The notes beneath the pieces are model-generated. The model was not told where the DNA came from. It ran no database searches and saw only the letters and a list, made by a program, of their open reading frames with translations. Both the position numbers and the translations under genes were made by a program. From Escherichia coli (GTDB lineage: Bacteria > Pseudomonadota > Gammaproteobacteria > Enterobacterales > Enterobacteriaceae), in NCBI GenBank assembly GCA_902500125.1, contig GCA_902500125.1_4132.1: a stretch of DNA of 64,000 bases; one strand, given 5' to 3'. Shown piece by piece: positions 28,757-59,075 of this stretch. How positions within the stretch are numbered: position 1 is the first letter of the stretch; every line of letters starts with the position of its first letter.

Positions 28757-28969
28757 ATGAAAACTATGAACATTCATCAGTACTACTTGGATATTCTCCC
28801 TAAAGATGTACAGTTCATCCTTAAACAAGAATACAGTACTTTAAAAAACCTTAAAAGAACCGCACCGAATGTATTAATCCTGCACCAAGAAAATGTAGTT
28901 GATAATATTCTACAAGGTGTACCAGGAACCGAGTACTTTAACATAATAAGGCTAATTACATTACCATGA
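28757..28969 (+). CDS. family A small tandem paralog
   Basis: Track ORF. Confidence 0.55.
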   Translation: MKTMNIHQYYLDILPKDVQFILKQEYSTLKNLKRTAPNVLILHQENVVDNILQGVPGTEYFNIIRLITLP

Positions 28970-29151
28970 ATCATATATTATACTATTACCAAAATCTATC
29001 CGACAGGGACAAGTACACCCACAACTCCCATGTATGGTACTACAAACGCGGTAGTATAAGGGACAAACAACATTACTTCAGTACTGCTATAAAAGAAACA
29101 CTAACAACTAAGTACACGTACAGAGCAGTACTGAAACTTATTGATATGTAA
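28966..29151 (+). CDS. family A small tandem paralog
   Basis: Track ORF; ATGA overlap. Confidence 0.55.
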   Translation: MNHILYYYQNLSDRDKYTHNSHVWYYKRGSIRDKQHYFSTAIKETLTTKYTYRAVLKLIDM

Positions 29152-29161
29152 AGAGAATACT

Positions 29162-29347
29162 ATGAATACATTTGAGTACTATACAAATAAACTATCTATG
29201 CCAGAAAGATCTCATCTCTATGTGTGGAGAAATGCGTATAAAAGCGGCAATAAACTTATACAAAGAAATTCCCTTACAGTGTGTACAAATTTAATTAAAG
29301 CAGAGTACCGCACATATATTGAAGTACTGAAACTAATCTCTATCTAA
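29162..29347 (+). CDS. family A small tandem paralog
   Basis: Internal ATG (MNTFEYY) of track ORF 29141..29347. Confidence 0.5.
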   Translation: MNTFEYYTNKLSMPERSHLYVWRNAYKSGNKLIQRNSLTVCTNLIKAEYRTYIEVLKLISI

Positions 29348-29355
29348 GGTACTCT

Positions 29356-29535
29356 ATGCAAGAATTCTATATCTATAAACTTCAGCACAAAGATAGATAC
29401 AACTATAATAAATTCCAAAGGTACTACACAGTCGGGAACAAAAGAGATAAAAAACGATACTTTCTATCATGTACAGTAGAAGCACAAAACGAAAAGTACA
29501 CGTACAGAGAAGTACTGAAACTCATCTCTATGTAA
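29356..29535 (+). CDS. family A small tandem paralog (59 aa)
   Basis: MQEFYIYKL..VLKLISM; below track cutoff. Confidence 0.45.
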   Translation: MQEFYIYKLQHKDRYNYNKFQRYYTVGNKRDKKRYFLSCTVEAQNEKYTYREVLKLISM

Positions 29536-29543
29536 GGAATAAT

Positions 29544-29723
29544 ATGCAAGAATACTATATAGAACACATAAACATTAAAGACCGTTTCATGTACGACACC
29601 TTCGTGAAGTACTACAACCTGGCAACTAACAGTACTAAAAATATTAATCTCAATAGCTGCATTCATCACGCACTAACAAAAGATAATCCCTTCAGGGAAA
29701 TCCTCGCACTAGCATCTGTATAA
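29544..29723 (+). CDS. family A small tandem paralog
   Basis: Internal ATG (MQEYYIEH) of track ORF 29469..29723. Confidence 0.5.
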   Translation: MQEYYIEHINIKDRFMYDTFVKYYNLATNSTKNINLNSCIHHALTKDNPFREILALASV

Positions 29724-29733
29724 AGGAAACCAA

Positions 29734-30393
29734 ATGAAACTTAATGCACACAGCAAACAATACCTTAAGCACTTTAAGTACCTCAACAGTATTCAAGCAG
29801 AATCTATTACATCTGCATATACGTATCACCCTAATGTACTAAAGAAACGAAATAAAAAGAAAAAATCCAGAAATGTTCTCGTATCTAAGAACCTCAAATC
29901 GTACTTGAAGAAAAATAATATAGCTCTTGCTTTTATTAATATCTATCATACTGATTTAAAAGTATTGAGTACTAATACCAGCACAAAAGCACTAAAGAAT
30001 GCATCTATCTATATACACATGGATAATATCCCGTGCACTATAATTCTATCTTTCGGGAATGTATACTTCTTCGGGAATTGTAATAGCACCCATGATATCA
30101 GTACTGCACAATTCCAAATCGGCGATATGTACTGCATGGGTTCAGAAAAAATACACGATAACATGCACTTCTTCCAAAAGCAACGTACTAACGAAACTGA
30201 TACAGTACTGCAATTCCTCAAAGAACTACAAAACAAAGAATTAACACCAGAAGAAGAATTCATGTACAGTACTGTAATCGATAATCCAGAACTCTATAAA
30301 AACGCGTACAAACTAACAAAACATGTACAGGAACTTATCAGTACTGATAAGAAATTTCATAACCTCATTACGTATATTACAAACTATGTATAA
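29734..30393 (+). CDS. hypothetical protein (219 aa) embedded in family A array
   Basis: Track ORF. Confidence 0.55.
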   Translation: MKLNAHSKQYLKHFKYLNSIQAESITSAYTYHPNVLKKRNKKKKSRNVLVSKNLKSYLKKNNIALAFINIYHTDLKVLSTNTSTKALKNASIYIHMDNIPCTIILSFGNVYFFGNCNSTHDISTAQFQIGDMYCMGSEKIHDNMHFFQKQRTNETDTVLQFLKELQNKELTPEEEFMYSTVIDNPELYKNAYKLTKHVQELISTDKKFHNLITYITNYV

Positions 30394-30571
30394 AGAATAC
30401 TACATAGAGAAACTCCCAATGTATCTCCAACACCTTCTACCAACAGAACCATTGGGTATAGAAAAAAACTACGAAAAAGACTACTTCATTCAGTGCACTA
30501 AATCCTCGATATATATTGAAGACTATAATCGAGTACTGTATCACATCCTTTTACTAATATATAGGTACTAA
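30386..30571 (+). CDS. family A small tandem paralog
   Basis: Internal ATG (MYKEYYIEKL) of track ORF 30323..30571; ends LLIYRY. Confidence 0.5.
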   Translation: MYKEYYIEKLPMYLQHLLPTEPLGIEKNYEKDYFIQCTKSSIYIEDYNRVLYHILLLIYRY

Positions 30572-30572
30572 T

Positions 30573-30755
30573 ATGCACAAAGAATACTACACACAATTTC
30601 TCCCCAGCATTTTTGAACACTACGCCAGATACAAAGTCCCTATGGATAACGATTTGGCAGTACTGGGATTCAATAACTGCATAGAACGAAGTATAGAAAA
30701 TAGTAGTAGTTATGACCAGCTATATAACACTATCCTACTTATATTCAGGTACTAA
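30573..30755 (+). CDS. family A small tandem paralog
   Basis: Track ORF; MHKEYYTQF..LLIFRY. Confidence 0.55.
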   Translation: MHKEYYTQFLPSIFEHYARYKVPMDNDLAVLGFNNCIERSIENSSSYDQLYNTILLIFRY

Positions 30756-30756
30756 T

Positions 30757-30945
30757 ATGCATAAAGAATACTACACAAAATATTTCCCAATGTACCTCAG
30801 TACTAATCTATTAGATAAACCTCGCGGTATCAATGCACAAAACGATAAAGTGTACTTTACTATGTGCACTAAAGCATGTATACTAGATTTTGACAGCTAT
30901 CATCGAGTACTGTATCATACCCTGTACCTAGCTTTCGTATTCTAA
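30757..30945 (+). CDS. family A small tandem paralog
   Basis: Internal ATG (MHKEYYTKY) of track ORF 30712..30945. Confidence 0.5.
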   Translation: MHKEYYTKYFPMYLSTNLLDKPRGINAQNDKVYFTMCTKACILDFDSYHRVLYHTLYLAFVF

Positions 30946-30954
30946 AAGAACAAT

Positions 30955-31140
30955 ATGCATAAAGAATTCTACTTAAGCCATCTCGATCTAAACTCCCAAA
31001 TGCTTATACCACTAATCCCAATAGATATCAAGGATAAGAAAAATACCGAACAATTCATTTACCATACACAGTGTGCGATCACCCCAAATTACATTCCATA
31101 TGAATTGTACTACATTATCGCCCTAATATATAGGTACTAA
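30955..31140 (+). CDS. family A small tandem paralog
   Basis: Track ORF; ends ALIYRY. Confidence 0.55.
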   Translation: MHKEFYLSHLDLNSQMLIPLIPIDIKDKKNTEQFIYHTQCAITPNYIPYELYYIIALIYRY

Positions 31141-31141
31141 T

Positions 31142-31327
31142 ATGCATAGAGAATACTACACACAATTTGTTAAAGGGAACTACAAACATGCCGTACCCAG
31201 AACCCCTTTAAATTCTCATGACCCAAGTACTATATTCTTGTTTAATGACGCAATACGTACAGTACTCAATACTAAAGATGAACAAGTGCAGTACGTATTC
31301 TTACTATTACTTATATACAGACACTAA
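31142..31327 (+). CDS. family A small tandem paralog
   Basis: Track ORF; ends LLLIYRH. Confidence 0.55.
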   Translation: MHREYYTQFVKGNYKHAVPRTPLNSHDPSTIFLFNDAIRTVLNTKDEQVQYVFLLLLIYRH

Positions 31328-31332
31328 CTAAT

Positions 31333-31542
31333 ATGAATAAAGAACATAAAGAATACTACTCCAAACACCTCAGCCCCTCAGAACAAATGTTTCTAAGGAC
31401 TACTCCACCTTTAAGTACTAATACATTTTTCGGCAGAGTATGCTACAATAATTGTATTCAAATGACTTTAAACGCAAACGAAGATGGTAACAGTACTAAC
31501 CTGTACTCAGGTATCATAGGTATACTATTCCTGTATGAATAA
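31333..31542 (+). CDS. family A small tandem paralog
   Basis: Track ORF; near-duplicate of 28349..28558. Confidence 0.55.
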   Translation: MNKEHKEYYSKHLSPSEQMFLRTTPPLSTNTFFGRVCYNNCIQMTLNANEDGNSTNLYSGIIGILFLYE

Positions 31543-31723
31543 TTACAAAGACTTCTATTTGAATACACTACCTACTGTACTTTCTCTAAGTGCTCAATGT
31601 AAAATCCCGCTGGATAATGCTTACGCCAGATATAGCTATTCCATAACTGTTAATCGATGTATAGAGAATCATTGCAGTACTAACCAGTACTATAACATAA
31701 TCCTACTTATATTCAGGTACTAA
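31535..31723 (+). CDS. family A small tandem paralog
   Basis: Track ORF; ends LLIFRY. Confidence 0.55.
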   Translation: MNNYKDFYLNTLPTVLSLSAQCKIPLDNAYARYSYSITVNRCIENHCSTNQYYNIILLIFRY

Positions 31724-31724
31724 T

Positions 31725-31907
31725 ATGAATAAAGAACATAAAGAATTCTATATACGAAAACTAACATTCGTCCCCGTAAGAATATATAAAGAATGCGACC
31801 CAAGATTATACCTATGGCACTTCAATGAGTGCATAAAAGATTCTATATACCATAAGAACTATAAAGAACAATTGTGCTCAGTACTAACACTAGTACTATC
31901 ATATTAA
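31725..31907 (+). CDS. family A small tandem paralog
   Basis: Track ORF. Confidence 0.55.
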   Translation: MNKEHKEFYIRKLTFVPVRIYKECDPRLYLWHFNECIKDSIYHKNYKEQLCSVLTLVLSY

Positions 31908-31922
31908 TTAATAGAGAATACT

Positions 31923-32114
31923 ATGTATAAAAACTTCTATATAAGTAAACTAAAAGAAAATGAACAAGTATGGATTAGATCTATAATTCCACTGGCATTT
32001 AATAGATATGCATTTAACAGATGTACCGAGATTGCTATAGACCCTTATAATATTAAAGAGAATGTACAGTATAATCAGTACTACTATATCTTAATGCTTA
32101 TATATAGAAAGTAA
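31923..32114 (+). CDS. family A small tandem paralog
   Basis: Track ORF; ends MLIYRK. Confidence 0.55.
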   Translation: MYKNFYISKLKENEQVWIRSIIPLAFNRYAFNRCTEIAIDPYNIKENVQYNQYYYILMLIYRK

Positions 32115-51592: not shown

Positions 51593-51609
51593 CAAAAAAG
51601 AATAAAAAA

Positions 51610-52970: not shown

Positions 52971-53028
52971 AAGTCAAGGCATTTTTAAAAATCAGCGTTA
53001 AAAAAATGCATAGGTAATCCCTTGACTT
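52971..53028. terminator. long inverted repeat, possible bidirectional terminator
   Basis: AAGTCAAGG ... CCTTGACTT arms with A-run before and T-run after. Confidence 0.4.
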
Positions 53029-53129: not shown

Positions 53130-53158
53130 TTGACTTTTTATACGAATCGTATATTATA
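53130..53158 (+). promoter_or_regulatory. sigma70-like promoter for family B array
   Basis: TTGACT-N17-TATTAT. Confidence 0.5.
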
Positions 53159-53187: not shown

Positions 53188-53385
53188 ATGCGTATTTTAA
53201 CTCAAGCAGAACATCACGAAAGACTTATCAATAACATGGCATATATCCTACATATGTCACATATCCGTGGTATTGCATATAAGCGTGAATTGGTTATGGC
53301 ACTATTCATTGGAACTAACTTTCAGGAAAGGTATGTCAAGGATTGGATTTCATATTTAATTGAAGATATAACGGGTAAACTATGA
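53188..53385 (+). CDS. family B small tandem paralog
   Basis: Track ORF; IGTNFQERY motif. Confidence 0.55.
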   Translation: MRILTQAEHHERLINNMAYILHMSHIRGIAYKRELVMALFIGTNFQERYVKDWISYLIEDITGKL

Positions 53386-53590
53386 AAATTATCACACAAT
53401 TTCAACTATATAATCTTATGATCGAATATAGAAAGAATATATATATATACCAGATGAGTTATCTAGGGATGAAAAAAAGTTTATTCTATCGGAGTGGTGG
53501 ATGATGGCTGGACTGGGAACCAACTTCCAAGAAAGTTTTGTTAATGATTGGATTTTACATTTAATAAAAGATATAAAGAGTAAACAATGA
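53382..53590 (+). pseudogene. family B member interrupted by frameshift at (AT)n tract
   Basis: N-terminus stops at 53502; LGTNFQESF..DIKSKQ continues in another frame; AT dinucleotide run about 53436-53449. Confidence 0.5.
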
Positions 53591-53796
53591 AAACTATAAC
53601 ACGAACCCAATCATTAGGTCTTATCTTGAAATACATGGACTTAATGTTGGATATCAGCAAAGACCTTCCTAAAACTGAAATCCAAGTTGCAAGAGCAGAG
53701 ATCCGCATGTTGGCTGTACTGAACACAAACCATCAGGAAGATTATGTTGAAGAATGGATTCGATTTTTAATAGAAGATATAAAGAGTAAATTATGA
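53587..53796 (+). CDS. family B small tandem paralog
   Basis: Track ORF; ATGA overlap; LNTNHQEDY. Confidence 0.55.
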   Translation: MKTITRTQSLGLILKYMDLMLDISKDLPKTEIQVARAEIRMLAVLNTNHQEDYVEEWIRFLIEDIKSKL

Positions 53797-54008
53797 TTAT
53801 TATAGAAAACTCATATCAATATACTGAACGCATCGCTGCCAGACAACTTGAAATCCTCATAATATACGAAGAGACTTCTGATTTAAACTTAGCCGAGGTA
53901 TTGGAAAATGATATACTATTGGGTGCATTCTTAGGAACAGACTATCAGAAGTATTATGAGGAAAAGTATTTGTCATCTCTTGAGAAATATATCAGGAGCA
54001 AATTATGA
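53793..54008 (+). CDS. family B small tandem paralog
   Basis: Track ORF; LGTDYQKYY. Confidence 0.55.
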   Translation: MIIIENSYQYTERIAARQLEILIIYEETSDLNLAEVLENDILLGAFLGTDYQKYYEEKYLSSLEKYIRSKL

Positions 54009-54217
54009 TTTTTTTAACACCAGAAGAATATAAGAAACGTTTCAATTCCGCACAGGGTGAAATCTTACTTATATACCTTTCAAATGCAGACCTTAACTTA
54101 TCAAGGGTATTAGAAAAAGATTTACTTATGGGTGCATTCCTTGATACAGACTTTCAGGTGTATTATGTAGGGGAATACTTAATTGCACTTCAGAATTATA
54201 TCAGGAGTAAACTATGA
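54005..54217 (+). CDS. family B small tandem paralog
   Basis: Track ORF; LDTDFQVYY. Confidence 0.55.
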   Translation: MIFLTPEEYKKRFNSAQGEILLIYLSNADLNLSRVLEKDLLMGAFLDTDFQVYYVGEYLIALQNYIRSKL

Positions 54218-54441
54218 AACATTTAAGTAATTCCGAGAAGAATAAAATTATCATTGCTGCAATAAACAAATATTTTACACTTCCTCACAAAGAAGGTTTA
54301 TGTATAAGAGAACACAGGATAAACACCACCGATATACGCATGATGGCTGTACTGGGGACGAACTTCCAGGAAGAGTATGTTATTGCACACATAGTTGCAC
54401 TCAAGAATTACATTATGGACAAATGTAATGAACATCATTAA
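54214..54441 (+). CDS. family B small tandem paralog
   Basis: Track ORF; LGTNFQEEY. Confidence 0.55.
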   Translation: MKHLSNSEKNKIIIAAINKYFTLPHKEGLCIREHRINTTDIRMMAVLGTNFQEEYVIAHIVALKNYIMDKCNEHH

Positions 54442-54652
54442 TAACTTTGAATACGAGGCCCGTGCTAAGAGTGCCAGAAAAAAAGAGAACACCATTTACT
54501 TCACTATGATGTACTTACAATGGACTGAAATTGAAGAAAAGGTTGCTGAAGTATGGATGTTGGAATTCATGGGGACGCAGTATCAGAATAGGTTTGCGGG
54601 TGAGTATATCAATGTTCTTATGAAACAAATAGAAAGAAAGGAAAAGAACTAA
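54428..54652 (+). CDS. family B small tandem paralog
   Basis: First ATG in track ORF 54395..54652 (track start is TTG); MGTQYQNRF. Confidence 0.5.
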   Translation: MNIINNFEYEARAKSARKKENTIYFTMMYLQWTEIEEKVAEVWMLEFMGTQYQNRFAGEYINVLMKQIERKEKN

Positions 54653-54810
54653 TGGTTTTCATTAACATATCTGACCAACTCGATACTAAACTAGAAGTCG
54701 AGCAGAGTGAGGGATGGATGTTGTACTTTCTTGGAACTTCTCATCAGAATTTTTATATCCATGAACACATAGTTGCACTCACAAATCTAATAAGGGATAA
54801 ATGTAAATGA
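54652..54810 (+). CDS. family B small tandem paralog (short, 52 aa)
   Basis: TAATG-coupled; LGTSHQNFY; below track cutoff. Confidence 0.45.
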   Translation: MVFINISDQLDTKLEVEQSEGWMLYFLGTSHQNFYIHEHIVALTNLIRDKCK

Positions 54811-55064
54811 AACACTTGACGAACGATGAATATTCACTTAGAATTCGAAAGCTCACCCCAGAAGCAAGAGTAATCTACGATGACGATGCACTTTCATGGA
54901 ACGAGATGAAAGTTAAAGTTCATGAGCTATGGTTGCTGTACTTTGTGGGAACCCAATATCAAGAGAAATATTGTACCGATTATCTTGAACAACTAATGGA
55001 TCTTATACAGATAAAACTAAATGAACGAATTGTGGAAAAATATGAAAACTTTATCAAGCACTGA
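54807..55064 (+). CDS. family B small tandem paralog
   Basis: Track ORF; VGTQYQEKY. Confidence 0.55.
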   Translation: MKHLTNDEYSLRIRKLTPEARVIYDDDALSWNEMKVKVHELWLLYFVGTQYQEKYCTDYLEQLMDLIQIKLNERIVEKYENFIKH

Positions 55065-55293
55065 GTATCAAACTGCCCTCTTCTCCCTTCTAAACACCCT
55101 CCGCACGAACAATAAACTTTATAATTCCCGTGAAGCTGATATCGTCAACGCTGATGTATATCTTAATAAATTCATAGGGACTAACTATCAAGAACTGTTC
55201 ACTCTACGATATATCGCTGCATTGAGAAACGAAATATCAGATAAAACCCGTCAAGCCAGAAGAGAATGGAATAAACAATGCGACAAAGACTAA
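55042..55293 (+). CDS. family B small tandem paralog
   Basis: Internal ATG of track ORF 55021..55293; IGTNYQELF. Confidence 0.5.
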   Translation: MKTLSSTEYQTALFSLLNTLRTNNKLYNSREADIVNADVYLNKFIGTNYQELFTLRYIAALRNEISDKTRQARREWNKQCDKD

Positions 55294-55514
55294 ATCACAA
55301 AATGTATTGTAAACTATTGCAGACACTGGCACAGAAACACTATGACACTGTATCTGAAATATTACCCTATGATATCATGCGTTTAATTCATAGTGAGGCA
55401 GAGATGCTTGTACTGATGACAGGCACTGATAAAAAAGCAATTGCCAAATCAATAGATATGTTCATCGAAGCACAATGTCAACACATTAGAACCGAGATAT
55501 GGAGACGAGAATGA
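55278..55514 (+). CDS. family B small tandem paralog (divergent motif)
   Basis: Track ORF; MTGTDKKAI. Confidence 0.5.
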   Translation: MRQRLNHKMYCKLLQTLAQKHYDTVSEILPYDIMRLIHSEAEMLVLMTGTDKKAIAKSIDMFIEAQCQHIRTEIWRRE

Positions 55515-55726
55515 TAACACTAAATGAGTTTCAGTATCATTGGAGGTTACAAACTATCAAATCAAAAGTGTATAGTATTGTGTTAAACAAATCTATTGCA
55601 CAAGAGGACAAATGTGTTATAATAGCTGAAATGAAGTTGGGTGCTTTCGTAGGGACAAACTATCAAAACATCTACACTGACGTATTGTTAAGTGCCTTAC
55701 GTAACAAGGTGGTATCCAAAATATGA
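55511..55726 (+). CDS. family B small tandem paralog
   Basis: ATGA-coupled ATG in track ORF; VGTNYQNIY. Confidence 0.55.
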   Translation: MITLNEFQYHWRLQTIKSKVYSIVLNKSIAQEDKCVIIAEMKLGAFVGTNYQNIYTDVLLSALRNKVVSKI

Positions 55727-55941
55727 GAAATTTACAAGGCTTTGAATACATCAGACTCCTGAAAACATGCACCAGCAGAAGGAAAATCTTATCAAGCGAT
55801 AAGAGCATCCAAGCTAACCTTAAGCACGCACTAGTAACTGAACTCTATGTAGGTGCACTCTTAGGCACAAACTATCAACAAATGTATGTGGATCTATGGA
55901 TTGACGCTCTACAGAAAGAGGTTAAAAGTAAATGCAAATGA
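55723..55941 (+). CDS. family B small tandem paralog
   Basis: Track ORF; LGTNYQQMY. Confidence 0.55.
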   Translation: MRNLQGFEYIRLLKTCTSRRKILSSDKSIQANLKHALVTELYVGALLGTNYQQMYVDLWIDALQKEVKSKCK

Positions 55942-56150
55942 TTAATTTAAGTAAAGATGAATATTATGAACGTCTTGCAAAAACTTATCCAGCACGTAAG
56001 GCCGTTTATGATAGTCACATTATTGAACGCTCAAAGAAGTTGATTGTAGTAAATGAGATTAAGATGCTTTCAGTCTTAGGAACAAACTATCAAGAGAATG
56101 CTGTACTGTTGTTAATTGATGCCCTCCAGAGAGAGATACAAAGTAAATGA
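55938..56150 (+). CDS. family B small tandem paralog
   Basis: ATGA-coupled ATG in track ORF; LGTNYQENA. Confidence 0.55.
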   Translation: MINLSKDEYYERLAKTYPARKAVYDSHIIERSKKLIVVNEIKMLSVLGTNYQENAVLLLIDALQREIQSK

Positions 56151-56395
56151 TTCATTTATCTTACCATGATTATCAAAAACGTTTAAATGCATCAAGGGAT
56201 ATAAGGATTCAAATCTTCAATAACAAAAAATTGAAACCTGACACCAGAAGAATCAAAATGATAGAAGCAGAGTTATGCAACTTCCTGGGGACGAACTATC
56301 AGGCAGGTAAGGTAAAAAACTATCTTAGAGAACTAATGATTTGTATCGAAAATAAATGTGAGGTTGATGAACATGCAAATGATCAATTTAAGTAA
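56147..56395 (+). CDS. family B small tandem paralog
   Basis: Track ORF; LGTNYQAGK. Confidence 0.55.
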   Translation: MIHLSYHDYQKRLNASRDIRIQIFNNKKLKPDTRRIKMIEAELCNFLGTNYQAGKVKNYLRELMICIENKCEVDEHANDQFK

Positions 56396-56636
56396 AGATG
56401 AATATACCGAGCGTATGACAAAAATTACGCACAAACGTAATACAATCTATCACAACCCAGAAATTCAACACAGTAAGAAAATGATTATGATGCGTGAGTT
56501 AAAGATGGGTGTATTCTTGGGAACAAACTATCAAGAGCCAGAAGTAAATCGATTAATTGCTGAGTTACTATTGGAAATCAAAGGTAAGCTGTACTTTCAT
56601 CAAATGACCCAGCCACTGAGGTGTACTGATCGATGA
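56379..56636 (+). CDS. family B small tandem paralog
   Basis: Internal ATG (MINLSKDEY) of track ORF; LGTNYQEPE. Confidence 0.5.
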   Translation: MINLSKDEYTERMTKITHKRNTIYHNPEIQHSKKMIMMRELKMGVFLGTNYQEPEVNRLIAELLLEIKGKLYFHQMTQPLRCTDR

Positions 56637-56884
56637 ATGCGATGAATATTGTGAATAACATCAGATTAGCAGAAAGATTTGATAGAATTGGGGAAGCACT
56701 GAGAAGATACGATAAAGAATATGGTCATTTGAGCTTTTCTATAGAAAAGAGATATGAACTTGAAGCAGAGTTTAAAATGCAGAGTCTCTTAGGCACACAG
56801 TATCAAAACCAATATATTCAAACTTGGATTGATTGTTTAATCCAGACAATTTACGTAAGAAACATTAAATGCAAAATGAAATGA
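56633..56884 (+). CDS. family B small tandem paralog
   Basis: Track ORF; LGTQYQNQY. Confidence 0.55.
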   Translation: MNAMNIVNNIRLAERFDRIGEALRRYDKEYGHLSFSIEKRYELEAEFKMQSLLGTQYQNQYIQTWIDCLIQTIYVRNIKCKMK

Positions 56885-57129
56885 TATACTTAACCTATAA
56901 TGAATACGTCGAGAGATTAGTTCGTGCCAAGAGATATACCAATAAACGTCCAATTGACCTAAACCAAACCCCAGCAGAAAGGAGTGCAGAAGTATTATTC
57001 CAATCACTACCATATCTTCTGGGAACTGATAGACAAGAGGAATATGTTGCACGTATGATTAGATATCTTAAAATCACTATTAAGGAAAAAGTAAATGCAA
57101 ATGCAAATGAAATACTTAACAGACGATGA
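56881..57129 (+). CDS. family B small tandem paralog
   Basis: ATGA-coupled ATG in track ORF; LGTDRQEEY. Confidence 0.55.
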   Translation: MIYLTYNEYVERLVRAKRYTNKRPIDLNQTPAERSAEVLFQSLPYLLGTDRQEEYVARMIRYLKITIKEKVNANANEILNRR

Positions 57130-57352
57130 GTTAAAAGAACGACTAATTAAATCCAGAAAACTTACAAATCAACTTCCAAACGACACAAACAAGTCACATG
57201 CCGAAAGGAGTGCAGAAGTTTTATACATTCAACTCATGTACTTTCTTGGTACTGACAGACAAGAGTATTACATTGAAAGTATGCTTCGATATCTTAAATT
57301 CTCTATAAAGGAAAAGATACATGCTCAAGAATTTAAAAATCCTAACAGTTAA
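57107..57352 (+). CDS. family B small tandem paralog
   Basis: Internal ATG (MKYLTDDE) of track ORF; LGTDRQEYY. Confidence 0.5.
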   Translation: MKYLTDDELKERLIKSRKLTNQLPNDTNKSHAERSAEVLYIQLMYFLGTDRQEYYIESMLRYLKFSIKEKIHAQEFKNPNS

Positions 57353-57563
57353 TGAATATCATAAGATTGTAATGAAAACTAATAGTGAAATTTCTAAAAA
57401 ATCAAACCCAAAGTACATACTGGAACACACATTCGAAGAACGTCAATTAGCTCTAGTTGAAGCAAAACTTCTTGCACTCCTAGGGACTAACTATCAAGAA
57501 GAATACATCAGAAAACTAATATACCTTTTAACTAAACATATAAGAAAAAGAAAAAATGCATGA
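57321..57563 (+). CDS. family B small tandem paralog
   Basis: Track ORF; LGTNYQEEY. Confidence 0.55.
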   Translation: MLKNLKILTVNEYHKIVMKTNSEISKKSNPKYILEHTFEERQLALVEAKLLALLGTNYQEEYIRKLIYLLTKHIRKRKNA

Positions 57564-57790
57564 AACACTTGACAGATGATGAACATGGGCTTATAGTAAT
57601 GGATGTAATCAACATCGAATACAAAAAGTTGATACGCTACCGTTGTTATGAAGATAAGCAACTCGTTCTAGCAGAACAGAAGTTGTTTCGACTCTTAAAC
57701 ACAAACTTCCAAGCACAATACGAAGAATCGTATATGTACCTTTTGGCGAGGAAAGCAAAAAGAGATTATGAAAATTTTAAGCAAAGGTGA
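57560..57790 (+). CDS. family B small tandem paralog
   Basis: Track ORF; LNTNFQAQY. Confidence 0.55.
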   Translation: MKHLTDDEHGLIVMDVINIEYKKLIRYRCYEDKQLVLAEQKLFRLLNTNFQAQYEESYMYLLARKAKRDYENFKQR

Positions 57791-57983
57791 TTCAGTAATA
57801 TTACTTATAGAGAGTTCAAGTAAATTCTTAAACATAACACTGTCTGATATAGATGAAGATGACAAAGAAGTACTGAGAGCAGATTTAAGAGTACTGTTAC
57901 ATATCGGAACAAACCTACAAGAAGAATATGTAGAGTGCTACATCAATGAACTTAAAGAATTAGTACTGAGAAAATGCAAATGA
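57768..57983 (+). CDS. family B small tandem paralog
   Basis: Track ORF; IGTNLQEEY. Confidence 0.55.
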   Translation: MKILSKGDSVILLIESSSKFLNITLSDIDEDDKEVLRADLRVLLHIGTNLQEEYVECYINELKELVLRKCK

Positions 57984-58201
57984 AAATCATTACCGATGCA
58001 GAATACCTAACAATCATAAATGGACTGTTTTTGAAGCTCTTCGTCATTAACACATCAGATATACCAGATATGGATAAAATTATTAAGAGAAATGAAGTCT
58101 ATGTTCTAGCTACCCTTGGAACGAACTATCAAGAACACGACATTAAAGATTATATTAATACACTTAAACGAGCGATTGAACTAAAATGCCAAAACCACTA
58201 G
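57980..58201 (+). CDS. family B small tandem paralog
   Basis: ATGA-coupled ATG in track ORF; LGTNYQEHD. Confidence 0.55.
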   Translation: MKIITDAEYLTIINGLFLKLFVINTSDIPDMDKIIKRNEVYVLATLGTNYQEHDIKDYINTLKRAIELKCQNH

Positions 58202-58401
58202 GAACAGCAGAATACATTGAACTAATGGGATTACACTTCTCATCCTTTCAGAAACTTATGCGAGAATCAAAGAATGATTTAGAATATACCATCAGAGGTT
58301 CCGATTTAAGAATGCTTCTCACCCTAGACACAGATTCCCAAGAGCGATTTGTCAATGAGCATATTAGAGCACTTTTAATGGAAATTCAAAGTAAACTATG
58401 A
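58186..58401 (+). CDS. family B small tandem paralog
   Basis: Track ORF; LDTDSQERF. Confidence 0.55.
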   Translation: MPKPLGTAEYIELMGLHFSSFQKLMRESKNDLEYTIRGSDLRMLLTLDTDSQERFVNEHIRALLMEIQSKL

Positions 58402-58613
58402 AGGTAATATCAAATCAAGAGTACTTGGCACTATTCAGGAAGAATAATCACAAATATATGGCACTTGATTCAAGAACTGATATAAGTGAACTTGAAAAAA
58501 ATCTTTTGCGTTCAGATATGATAGTACTGACACTCTTAGGAACACAGCATCAAGAGAGAACTGTTAATTCACACATAGGGATTCTAATGCAGATAGTACA
58601 GGAAAAGATATGA
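58398..58613 (+). CDS. family B small tandem paralog
   Basis: Track ORF; LGTQHQERT. Confidence 0.55.
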   Translation: MKVISNQEYLALFRKNNHKYMALDSRTDISELEKNLLRSDMIVLTLLGTQHQERTVNSHIGILMQIVQEKI

Positions 58614-58831
58614 GAATCATAACACAACAAGATATTCTTAAGTTCACAAGGGTTCATGCATCTGAATTTGATGCTATATTATCAAAAAGTTACAACAACC
58701 CTTATACAGAAGATGTACACTACAATGAATTATGGGTGTATATACTTTTAGGTACAGATCATCAAGAGCAAGCAGTACAGAAGTATTTGTTAGCTTTACG
58801 TGATGCTACTGCTAATGGAGTACGTGTTTAA
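58610..58831 (+). CDS. family B small tandem paralog
   Basis: Track ORF; LGTDHQEQA. Confidence 0.55.
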   Translation: MRIITQQDILKFTRVHASEFDAILSKSYNNPYTEDVHYNELWVYILLGTDHQEQAVQKYLLALRDATANGVRV

Positions 58832-58832
58832 T

Positions 58833-59075
58833 ATGAAAGTACTGACAGAACTAGAAATGTATCATAGATTTAATAAGTACTATCATTTACTTAAGCCTAT
58901 ACAGAGGATTAAATGTCCATTTGAAGAGAAACAGGTATTAATTTATGAGCATAAGTTATTTGTATCATTAGGTACAGATCAACAAGAGTACTATTTGACG
59001 TTGTACTTGATTACATTAATAGATTTAATTTACTATAAAACCAAACAAGCTAATAAAGAGAAATATGAAAACTAA
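58833..59075 (+). CDS. family B small tandem paralog
   Basis: ATG just after upstream stop in track ORF 58800..59075; LGTDQQEYY. Confidence 0.55.
   Translation: MKVLTELEMYHRFNKYYHLLKPIQRIKCPFEEKQVLIYEHKLFVSLGTDQQEYYLTLYLITLIDLIYYKTKQANKEKYEN

Follow-up and report, generated by a model that had tools for sequence, protein, structure and literature searches.

Gains and losses of repeat units by slipped-strand mispairing at short microsatellites (the Streisinger model) provide the background against which the locus described here should be read. In Haemophilus influenzae the promoter spacer of hifA/hifB contains (TA)9-11, and the tract length varies among isolates. In bacteriophages, Sorensen et al. 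are said to have described in 2021 hypermutable polyG tracts in receptor-binding genes of Campylobacter phages. More recently, a preprint reported that homopolymer simple sequence repeats (SSRs) of at least 6 nt in phages undergo reversible frameshifts at ~7e-4 and function in T2 and T4 as contingency loci (Gomez, Barrick and Waters 2025, 10.1101/2025.10.21.683753). Here we describe an Asteriusvirus gene that is interrupted at a (TA)6 tract. The reading that we favor, with a probability of about 0.72, is a real and fixed slippage insertion, (TA)5 to (TA)6, which is specific to one lineage and frameshifts one of 26 paralogs in a tandem array.

The interrupted gene and its TA tract

The gene at slot 2 of the array does not form one ORF but is split into two on the plus strand (Table 1). 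The first, MKIITQFQLYNLMIEYRKNIYIYQMSYLGMKKSLFYRSGG, starts with the ATG at 53382 and has its stop codon at 53502-53504. Its 40-aa product consists of 22 native residues, ending in NIYI, followed by 18 out-of-frame residues. The conserved C-terminal half, MMAGLGTNFQESFVNDWILHLIKDIKSKQ, is encoded by the 29-aa ORF, which is offset by 119 nt from the 40-aa ORF and thus lies in the -1/+2 frame. A sequence-only reading of this DNA had already placed the conserved half in another frame, as the ORF list confirmed. It also had the first ORF stop right after ..RKNI, which is incorrect since reading continues out of frame to 53504.

The frames are separated by a 13-nt tract, ATATATATATATA, at 53437-53449, which contains the (TA)6 repeat. 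This repeat is the sole dinucleotide run of at least 5 units in the window, by which we mean the whole 64-kb stretch of DNA that was analyzed. An HMM derived from the array matched the locus in two frames, with HMM positions 1-29 and 22-70 overlapping at the tract. The earlier assignment of the frame break to an AT/TA run was correct in this respect, and the run was found where it had been placed (53436-53449) except for a shift of about 1 nt. Deletion of one TA in silico gave a 207-bp ORF encoding 68 aa, as compared to 209 bp for the split gene. That loss of one unit would restore a full-length member, also part of the sequence-only reading, was borne out both by the match of the 68-aa protein to phrog_4148 and by the existence of a natural allele with exactly (TA)5.

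The chance occurrence of such tracts was estimated from dinucleotide-preserving shuffles of the window. The expectation per window was 0.07 for (TA)6, with at least one occurrence in 7 of 100 shuffles, and 0.63 for (TA)5. The (TA)5 tract is therefore at chance level for the AT-rich DNA found here, and it arises as a side effect of the codons for N-I-Y-I.

Table 1. Position of the interrupted gene, its parts and the surrounding array in the window.
Feature	Position	Strand	Basis
Tandem array of 26 phrog_4148 paralogs, of which only the slot-2 gene is split	53188..59072	+	ORF list, family HMM
Sigma-70-like promoter candidate TTGACT-16-TATTAT, upstream of first array gene	53130..53157	+	Consensus match only
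Interrupted phrog_4148 array member, slot 2	53382..53590	+	ORF list; TA-repaired form identical to P0001
(TA)6 tract, +2 insertion site; ancestral (TA)5 encodes N-I-Y-I (AAT ATA TAT ATA)	53438..53449	+	Sequence, tract census
40-aa product, without LGTNxQ motif and helices 2-3	53382..53504	+	ORF list, alignment, predicted structure
29-aa C-terminal ORF with conserved motif	53501..53590	+	Sequence, ORF list
A7 run inside the gene	53472..53478	+	Homopolymer scan, fold test

The host phage and the tandem array

The window is part of a jumbo coliphage, an Asteriusvirus resembling PBECO4, 121Q and slurp01. Its best matches in the phage collection were 94-96% identical and the similarity was mosaic. 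The 26 tandem phrog_4148 paralogs range from 52 to 90 aa, and the start and stop codons of neighboring genes mostly overlap (ATGA). A single array-derived profile matched all array genes, and phrog_4148 was matched by those members that were tested. The other 25 ORFs are intact in the window and none has a comparable tract. A survey of 19 loci, with ~230 copies of array genes, showed no frame-split member other than the slot-2 gene of the window. Only one other damaged copy was found in this set, a gene of phage TH47 with an in-frame stop (L010:14231-14443).

TH47, which is an UNVERIFIED GenBank record, also lacks the two genes of the array which, in the window, come next after the interrupted gene (window 53587-54008; L003:1009 onward). 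The junction in TH47 is located in the conserved 3' end, ..GATATAAAGAGTAAAC, a position compatible with unequal recombination among paralogs.

The direct terminal repeat of 21.5 kb that is annotated in phage vB_Ec-M-J ends intergenically, just upstream of the first array gene, and in the window the array starts ~100 bp after the position homologous to this boundary. The combination of this boundary position with the promoter candidate upstream of the array (Table 1) makes it plausible that the array genes are early genes. The scan of promoters and terminators did not rise above shuffle expectation. The array is not described in the papers searched on the jumbo phages CBB and Sharanji.

Some further features of the region were observed. 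At 52990-52991, an intergenic site upstream of the array and near the inferred terminal-repeat boundary, the window has AA whereas CT is present in the contig assembled from run ERR3555816 and in other relatives; these are the sole differences from the ERR3555816 contig over 4.76 kb. Length differences of the A6/A7 type relative to close relatives occur at 51604, 51746 and other intergenic sites, where they adjoin AAAAAGTA(C)TTGACA-like motifs. These recurring motifs look like a repeated early-promoter element. A second run of ~20 tightly packed ORFs of 60-84 aa is located at 27920-32114 on the plus strand. It gave no match to the family-B HMM and is presumably what the sequence-only reading called 'family A'.

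Intact and broken alleles in other genomes

The repaired 68-aa protein is exactly identical to a deposited protein (P0001; EHV4444251.1, HHT8266173.1, VVZ32221.1) that occurs on 17 contigs. The truncated 40-aa product (P0003) has been deposited as well, under accessions VVZ33212.1 and VWN20621.1, from one contig of 348,047 bp that is labelled E. coli. An exact look-up of this 40-aa product in the contig index returned no record.

For a census of tract lengths, carriers were gathered via the contigs encoding P0001, via carriers of the neighboring gene and from one metagenome match. The sample comprised TH47, metagenome contig OERD01000139.1 and 14 further genomes or contigs from NCBI, ENA and Logan. 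All 16 of these independent genomes and metagenome contigs carry (TA)5 in frame; no other length was found, neither (TA)4 nor (TA)7 or (TA)8. Among the census loci, (TA)6 was present only in the window and in Logan contig ERR3555816_95. The latter was assembled independently from raw reads as an uninterrupted contig of 39.6 kb and is 99.96% identical to the window, with 2 mismatches and 0 gaps over 4762 bp.

In TH47 the tract is (TA)5 and the 68-aa ORF is intact, with 206 of 207 positions identical to the window gene after removal of one TA. Fifteen carriers have the 207-bp cassette with 100% identity, and their flanking genes are 87-100% identical (up to 12% divergent). The occurrence of an identical cassette, recognizable by its start MKIITQ, amid divergent neighbors suggests that recombination inside the array has recently spread it horizontally. 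Apart from the extra TA, the window copy does not differ from the intact natural allele by any substitution, and the insertion is therefore recent. An allele with 79% identity (P0002) reads AATGTATATATCC, which is an interrupted form of the tract, and in the nearest paralog the tract is absent.

Two quite different cassettes are found at slot 2 among these phages, MKIITQ.. (68 aa) and MKMRILNKEEY.. (64-66 aa). Among the 33 Asteriusvirus records in INPHARED the MKIITQ cassette occurs in TH47 only and the other records have a different paralog in its place, in most Asteriusviruses the unrelated-looking MKMRILNKEEY.. one, which indicates that the MKIITQ cassette is dispensable. An exact-pattern scan for the tract with its anchors gave 1 match in metagenomes and 0 matches among the viral contigs of IMG/VR or the genome contigs of GTDB. 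No match to the locus was present in PLSDB plasmids or in the complete E. coli genomes of RefSeq, and no paper was found by a literature search on the run and assembly accessions.

Protein family and predicted effect of the break

The repaired ORF matches phrog_4148 end to end, residues 1-68 aligning with positions 1-71 of 74 at an E value of 3.7e-17. The full-length profile match and the presence of the LGTNxQ motif identify the protein as a member of this family. An AlphaFold2 model of the intact protein showed a three-helix bundle with a pLDDT of 93.5 and helices at residues 6-17, 28-43 and 49-67. According to this model, the frameshift after residue 22 is predicted to remove helices 2 and 3. 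It also removes the LGTNxQ motif, together with all positions that are invariant in the family (T46, Q49 and L60), since these are downstream of the break. No credible Pfam domain was found in any array member. In Foldseek searches no PDB entry reached an E value below 1, and the matches in BFVD were family members only. Since the matches are limited to members of phrog_4148, the fold gives no clue to function.

The ATG of the 29-aa ORF overlaps the TGA of the 40-aa ORF (ATGA, 53501-53504), and a GGAG sequence is present at 53491-53494, 6 nt upstream of this ATG. Judging from this arrangement, termination-reinitiation at the ATGA may yield a C-terminal fragment and may keep ribosomes flowing to the next gene.

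Origin of the extra TA unit

The observations are best explained by a single recent event in which replication slippage would have added one TA unit to the (TA)5 tract. Slipped-strand mispairing, as put forward in the sequence-only reading, is the obvious candidate for the mutational mechanism, and the restored (TA)5 allele exists in nature. The insertion frameshifts the slot-2 paralog and would leave a null or split allele. Its loss would probably be tolerated: the cassette is accessory, being absent from most Asteriusviruses, and 25 paralogs are present alongside it. The ATGA overlap and the GGAG sequence may permit reinitiation, by which translational coupling to the next gene would be preserved, and the same slippage could revert the mutation. 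A caveat is that the lack of secondary decay is also expected of a reversible switch.

A sequencing or consensus error at the simple repeat, the real phage having (TA)5 and an intact gene, is unlikely in our estimate. Simple repeats are error-prone on some platforms and the (TA)6 allele is confined to one lineage. Furthermore, the window, the ERR3555816 contig and the two protein accessions may trace to one sample or library, in which case the (TA)6 observations are independent at the assembly step only. On the other hand, an independent assembler working on raw reads gave the same (TA)6 within an uninterrupted contig. Comparison to a 98.4%-identical relative over 6.2 kb showed that besides the TA the only uncompensated indels were two intergenic A6/A7 differences, and the intactness of the other 25 array ORFs argues against an error-ridden assembly. 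A dinucleotide run of 12 nt is well within short-read accuracy. An assembler artefact is unlikely because of the independent Logan assembly, the intact ORFs and the small number of indels; a systematic error at the level of the library or platform is possible. The sequence-only reading had considered an error equally possible. This view is weakened by the (TA)6 of ERR3555816 and by the absence of any other uncompensated coding indel over 6.2 kb.

Somewhat less likely again is that the TA tract is a hypermutable switch, with an early protein that is ON at (TA)5 and OFF at (TA)6. Within phage populations such a switch could serve bet-hedging, for instance where the protein is sensed by a host defence. 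Both tract lengths occur naturally in an otherwise identical gene, the OFF allele is undecayed and no dinucleotide run in the 64 kb is longer than the (TA)6 tract. The existence of SSR contingency loci in phages has been argued for (10.1101/2025.10.21.683753), and as in such loci the repeat is positioned to switch expression, being inside the ORF where removal of one unit restores the 68 aa. However, the tract length is not polymorphic among isolates: one lineage has (TA)6, and every one of the 16 other carriers, all independent, has (TA)5 even though their flanks diverge by up to 12%. Nor is the tract beyond chance or conserved across alleles. A (TA)5 tract is expected at this frequency and follows directly from the N-I-Y-I codons, the 79% allele has an interrupted repeat and the nearest paralog has none, 5-6 units is short as compared to classic dinucleotide switches, and the other 25 array members have no comparable tract. 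With no length polymorphism, no tract conservation and no length beyond chance, the locus does not display the hallmarks of a contingency locus, and nothing indicates that the tract is an evolved switch. The earlier description of the locus as a classic slipped-strand phase-variation signature could not be upheld for the same reasons. That the Logan contig runs unbroken through the tract argues only against a roughly balanced mixture of (TA)5 and (TA)6.

The most elaborate form of this idea is a dinucleotide contingency locus in a jumbo phage, at which rapid (TA)5/(TA)6 interconversion by the phage polymerase toggles an array member and allows sub-populations to escape a sensing host defence. 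We regard this as slightly more doubtful than a switch as such. If true, it would extend the concept of phage contingency loci from homopolymers to dinucleotides and multigene arrays, and if read-level switching were found the locus would become the first dinucleotide example for the contingency-locus hypothesis in phages.

Continued synthesis of the full-length protein from the (TA)6 gene by -1 (or +2) ribosomal frameshifting or by transcriptional slippage, at sites such as the A7 run or the TA tract, is very improbable: a -1 shift anywhere in 53432-53504 would restore the native C-terminus and the A7 run in that interval is the sole conceivable -1 slip site for frame rescue, but in the (TA)6 frame the heptamer reads G_AAA_AAA instead of a canonical X_XXY_YYZ, the downstream sequence folds no better than shuffles (MFE -11.2 kcal/mol, z = +1.58, 192 of 200 shuffles folding at least as well), and all other carriers are single-frame, so that frameshifting is not the normal mode of expression of the family. 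The candidate programmed -1 frameshift site was rejected on these grounds. In the intact frame the A7 run reads gaA AAA AAG, which is a dnaX-type slippery heptamer in phase. This is probably coincidental, with no downstream structure predicted.

A slippage insertion in a redundant gene, which we consider the best explanation, is an already-known kind of event. It does affect annotation. The locus should be described as a phrog_4148 paralog that is split, or a frameshifted pseudogene, instead of as two very small ORFs; nr at present lists the fragment of 40 aa as 'Uncharacterised protein [E. coli]'. The gene provides a clear natural case of a knockout by slippage that took one step and shows zero decay, in a phage array of redundant genes. 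Moreover, the (TA)5 form in GCA_902500055.1-like phages and the (TA)6 form described here make up a natural isogenic ON/OFF pair that could serve to probe the function of this Asteriusvirus-specific family.

Comparison to known systems

The resemblance to the H. influenzae hif system is that a TA unit changes by slippage. The tract studied here differs from hif in having 5-6 units, in being located in a coding sequence and in being essentially monomorphic. With the polyG tracts of Campylobacter phages it shares that a phage-encoded SSR switches a gene ON or OFF. Those tracts are long G runs that vary between and within stocks and affect host-range genes with a known phenotype, whereas the TA tract found here is short and has its variant form in one lineage.

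The T2 agt and T4 rIIA loci (10.1101/2025.10.21.683753) are similar in that slippage of a unit in a coding SSR reversibly disables a non-essential gene. The runs in agt and rIIA are mononucleotide and the preprint does not mention dinucleotides. Furthermore, the T2 and T4 loci rest on reversion that is ~1000-fold above SNP level and on read-level variation, whereas the present locus is known from assemblies and its length is invariant in the 16 carriers.

When compared to the small early-region paralogs of Asteriusviruses in phrog_4148 and phrog_28039, the repaired protein shares the LGTNxQ motif and the predicted three-helix fold, and the window member is distinguished by its being split by a frameshift. 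The category that fits the locus is slippage of the Streisinger type. There is the same gain of one unit in a perfect dinucleotide run, with the frame shifted and nothing else changed, and no substantive difference from such slippage was found; for the locus described here, relatives show the ancestral length at which the gene is intact.
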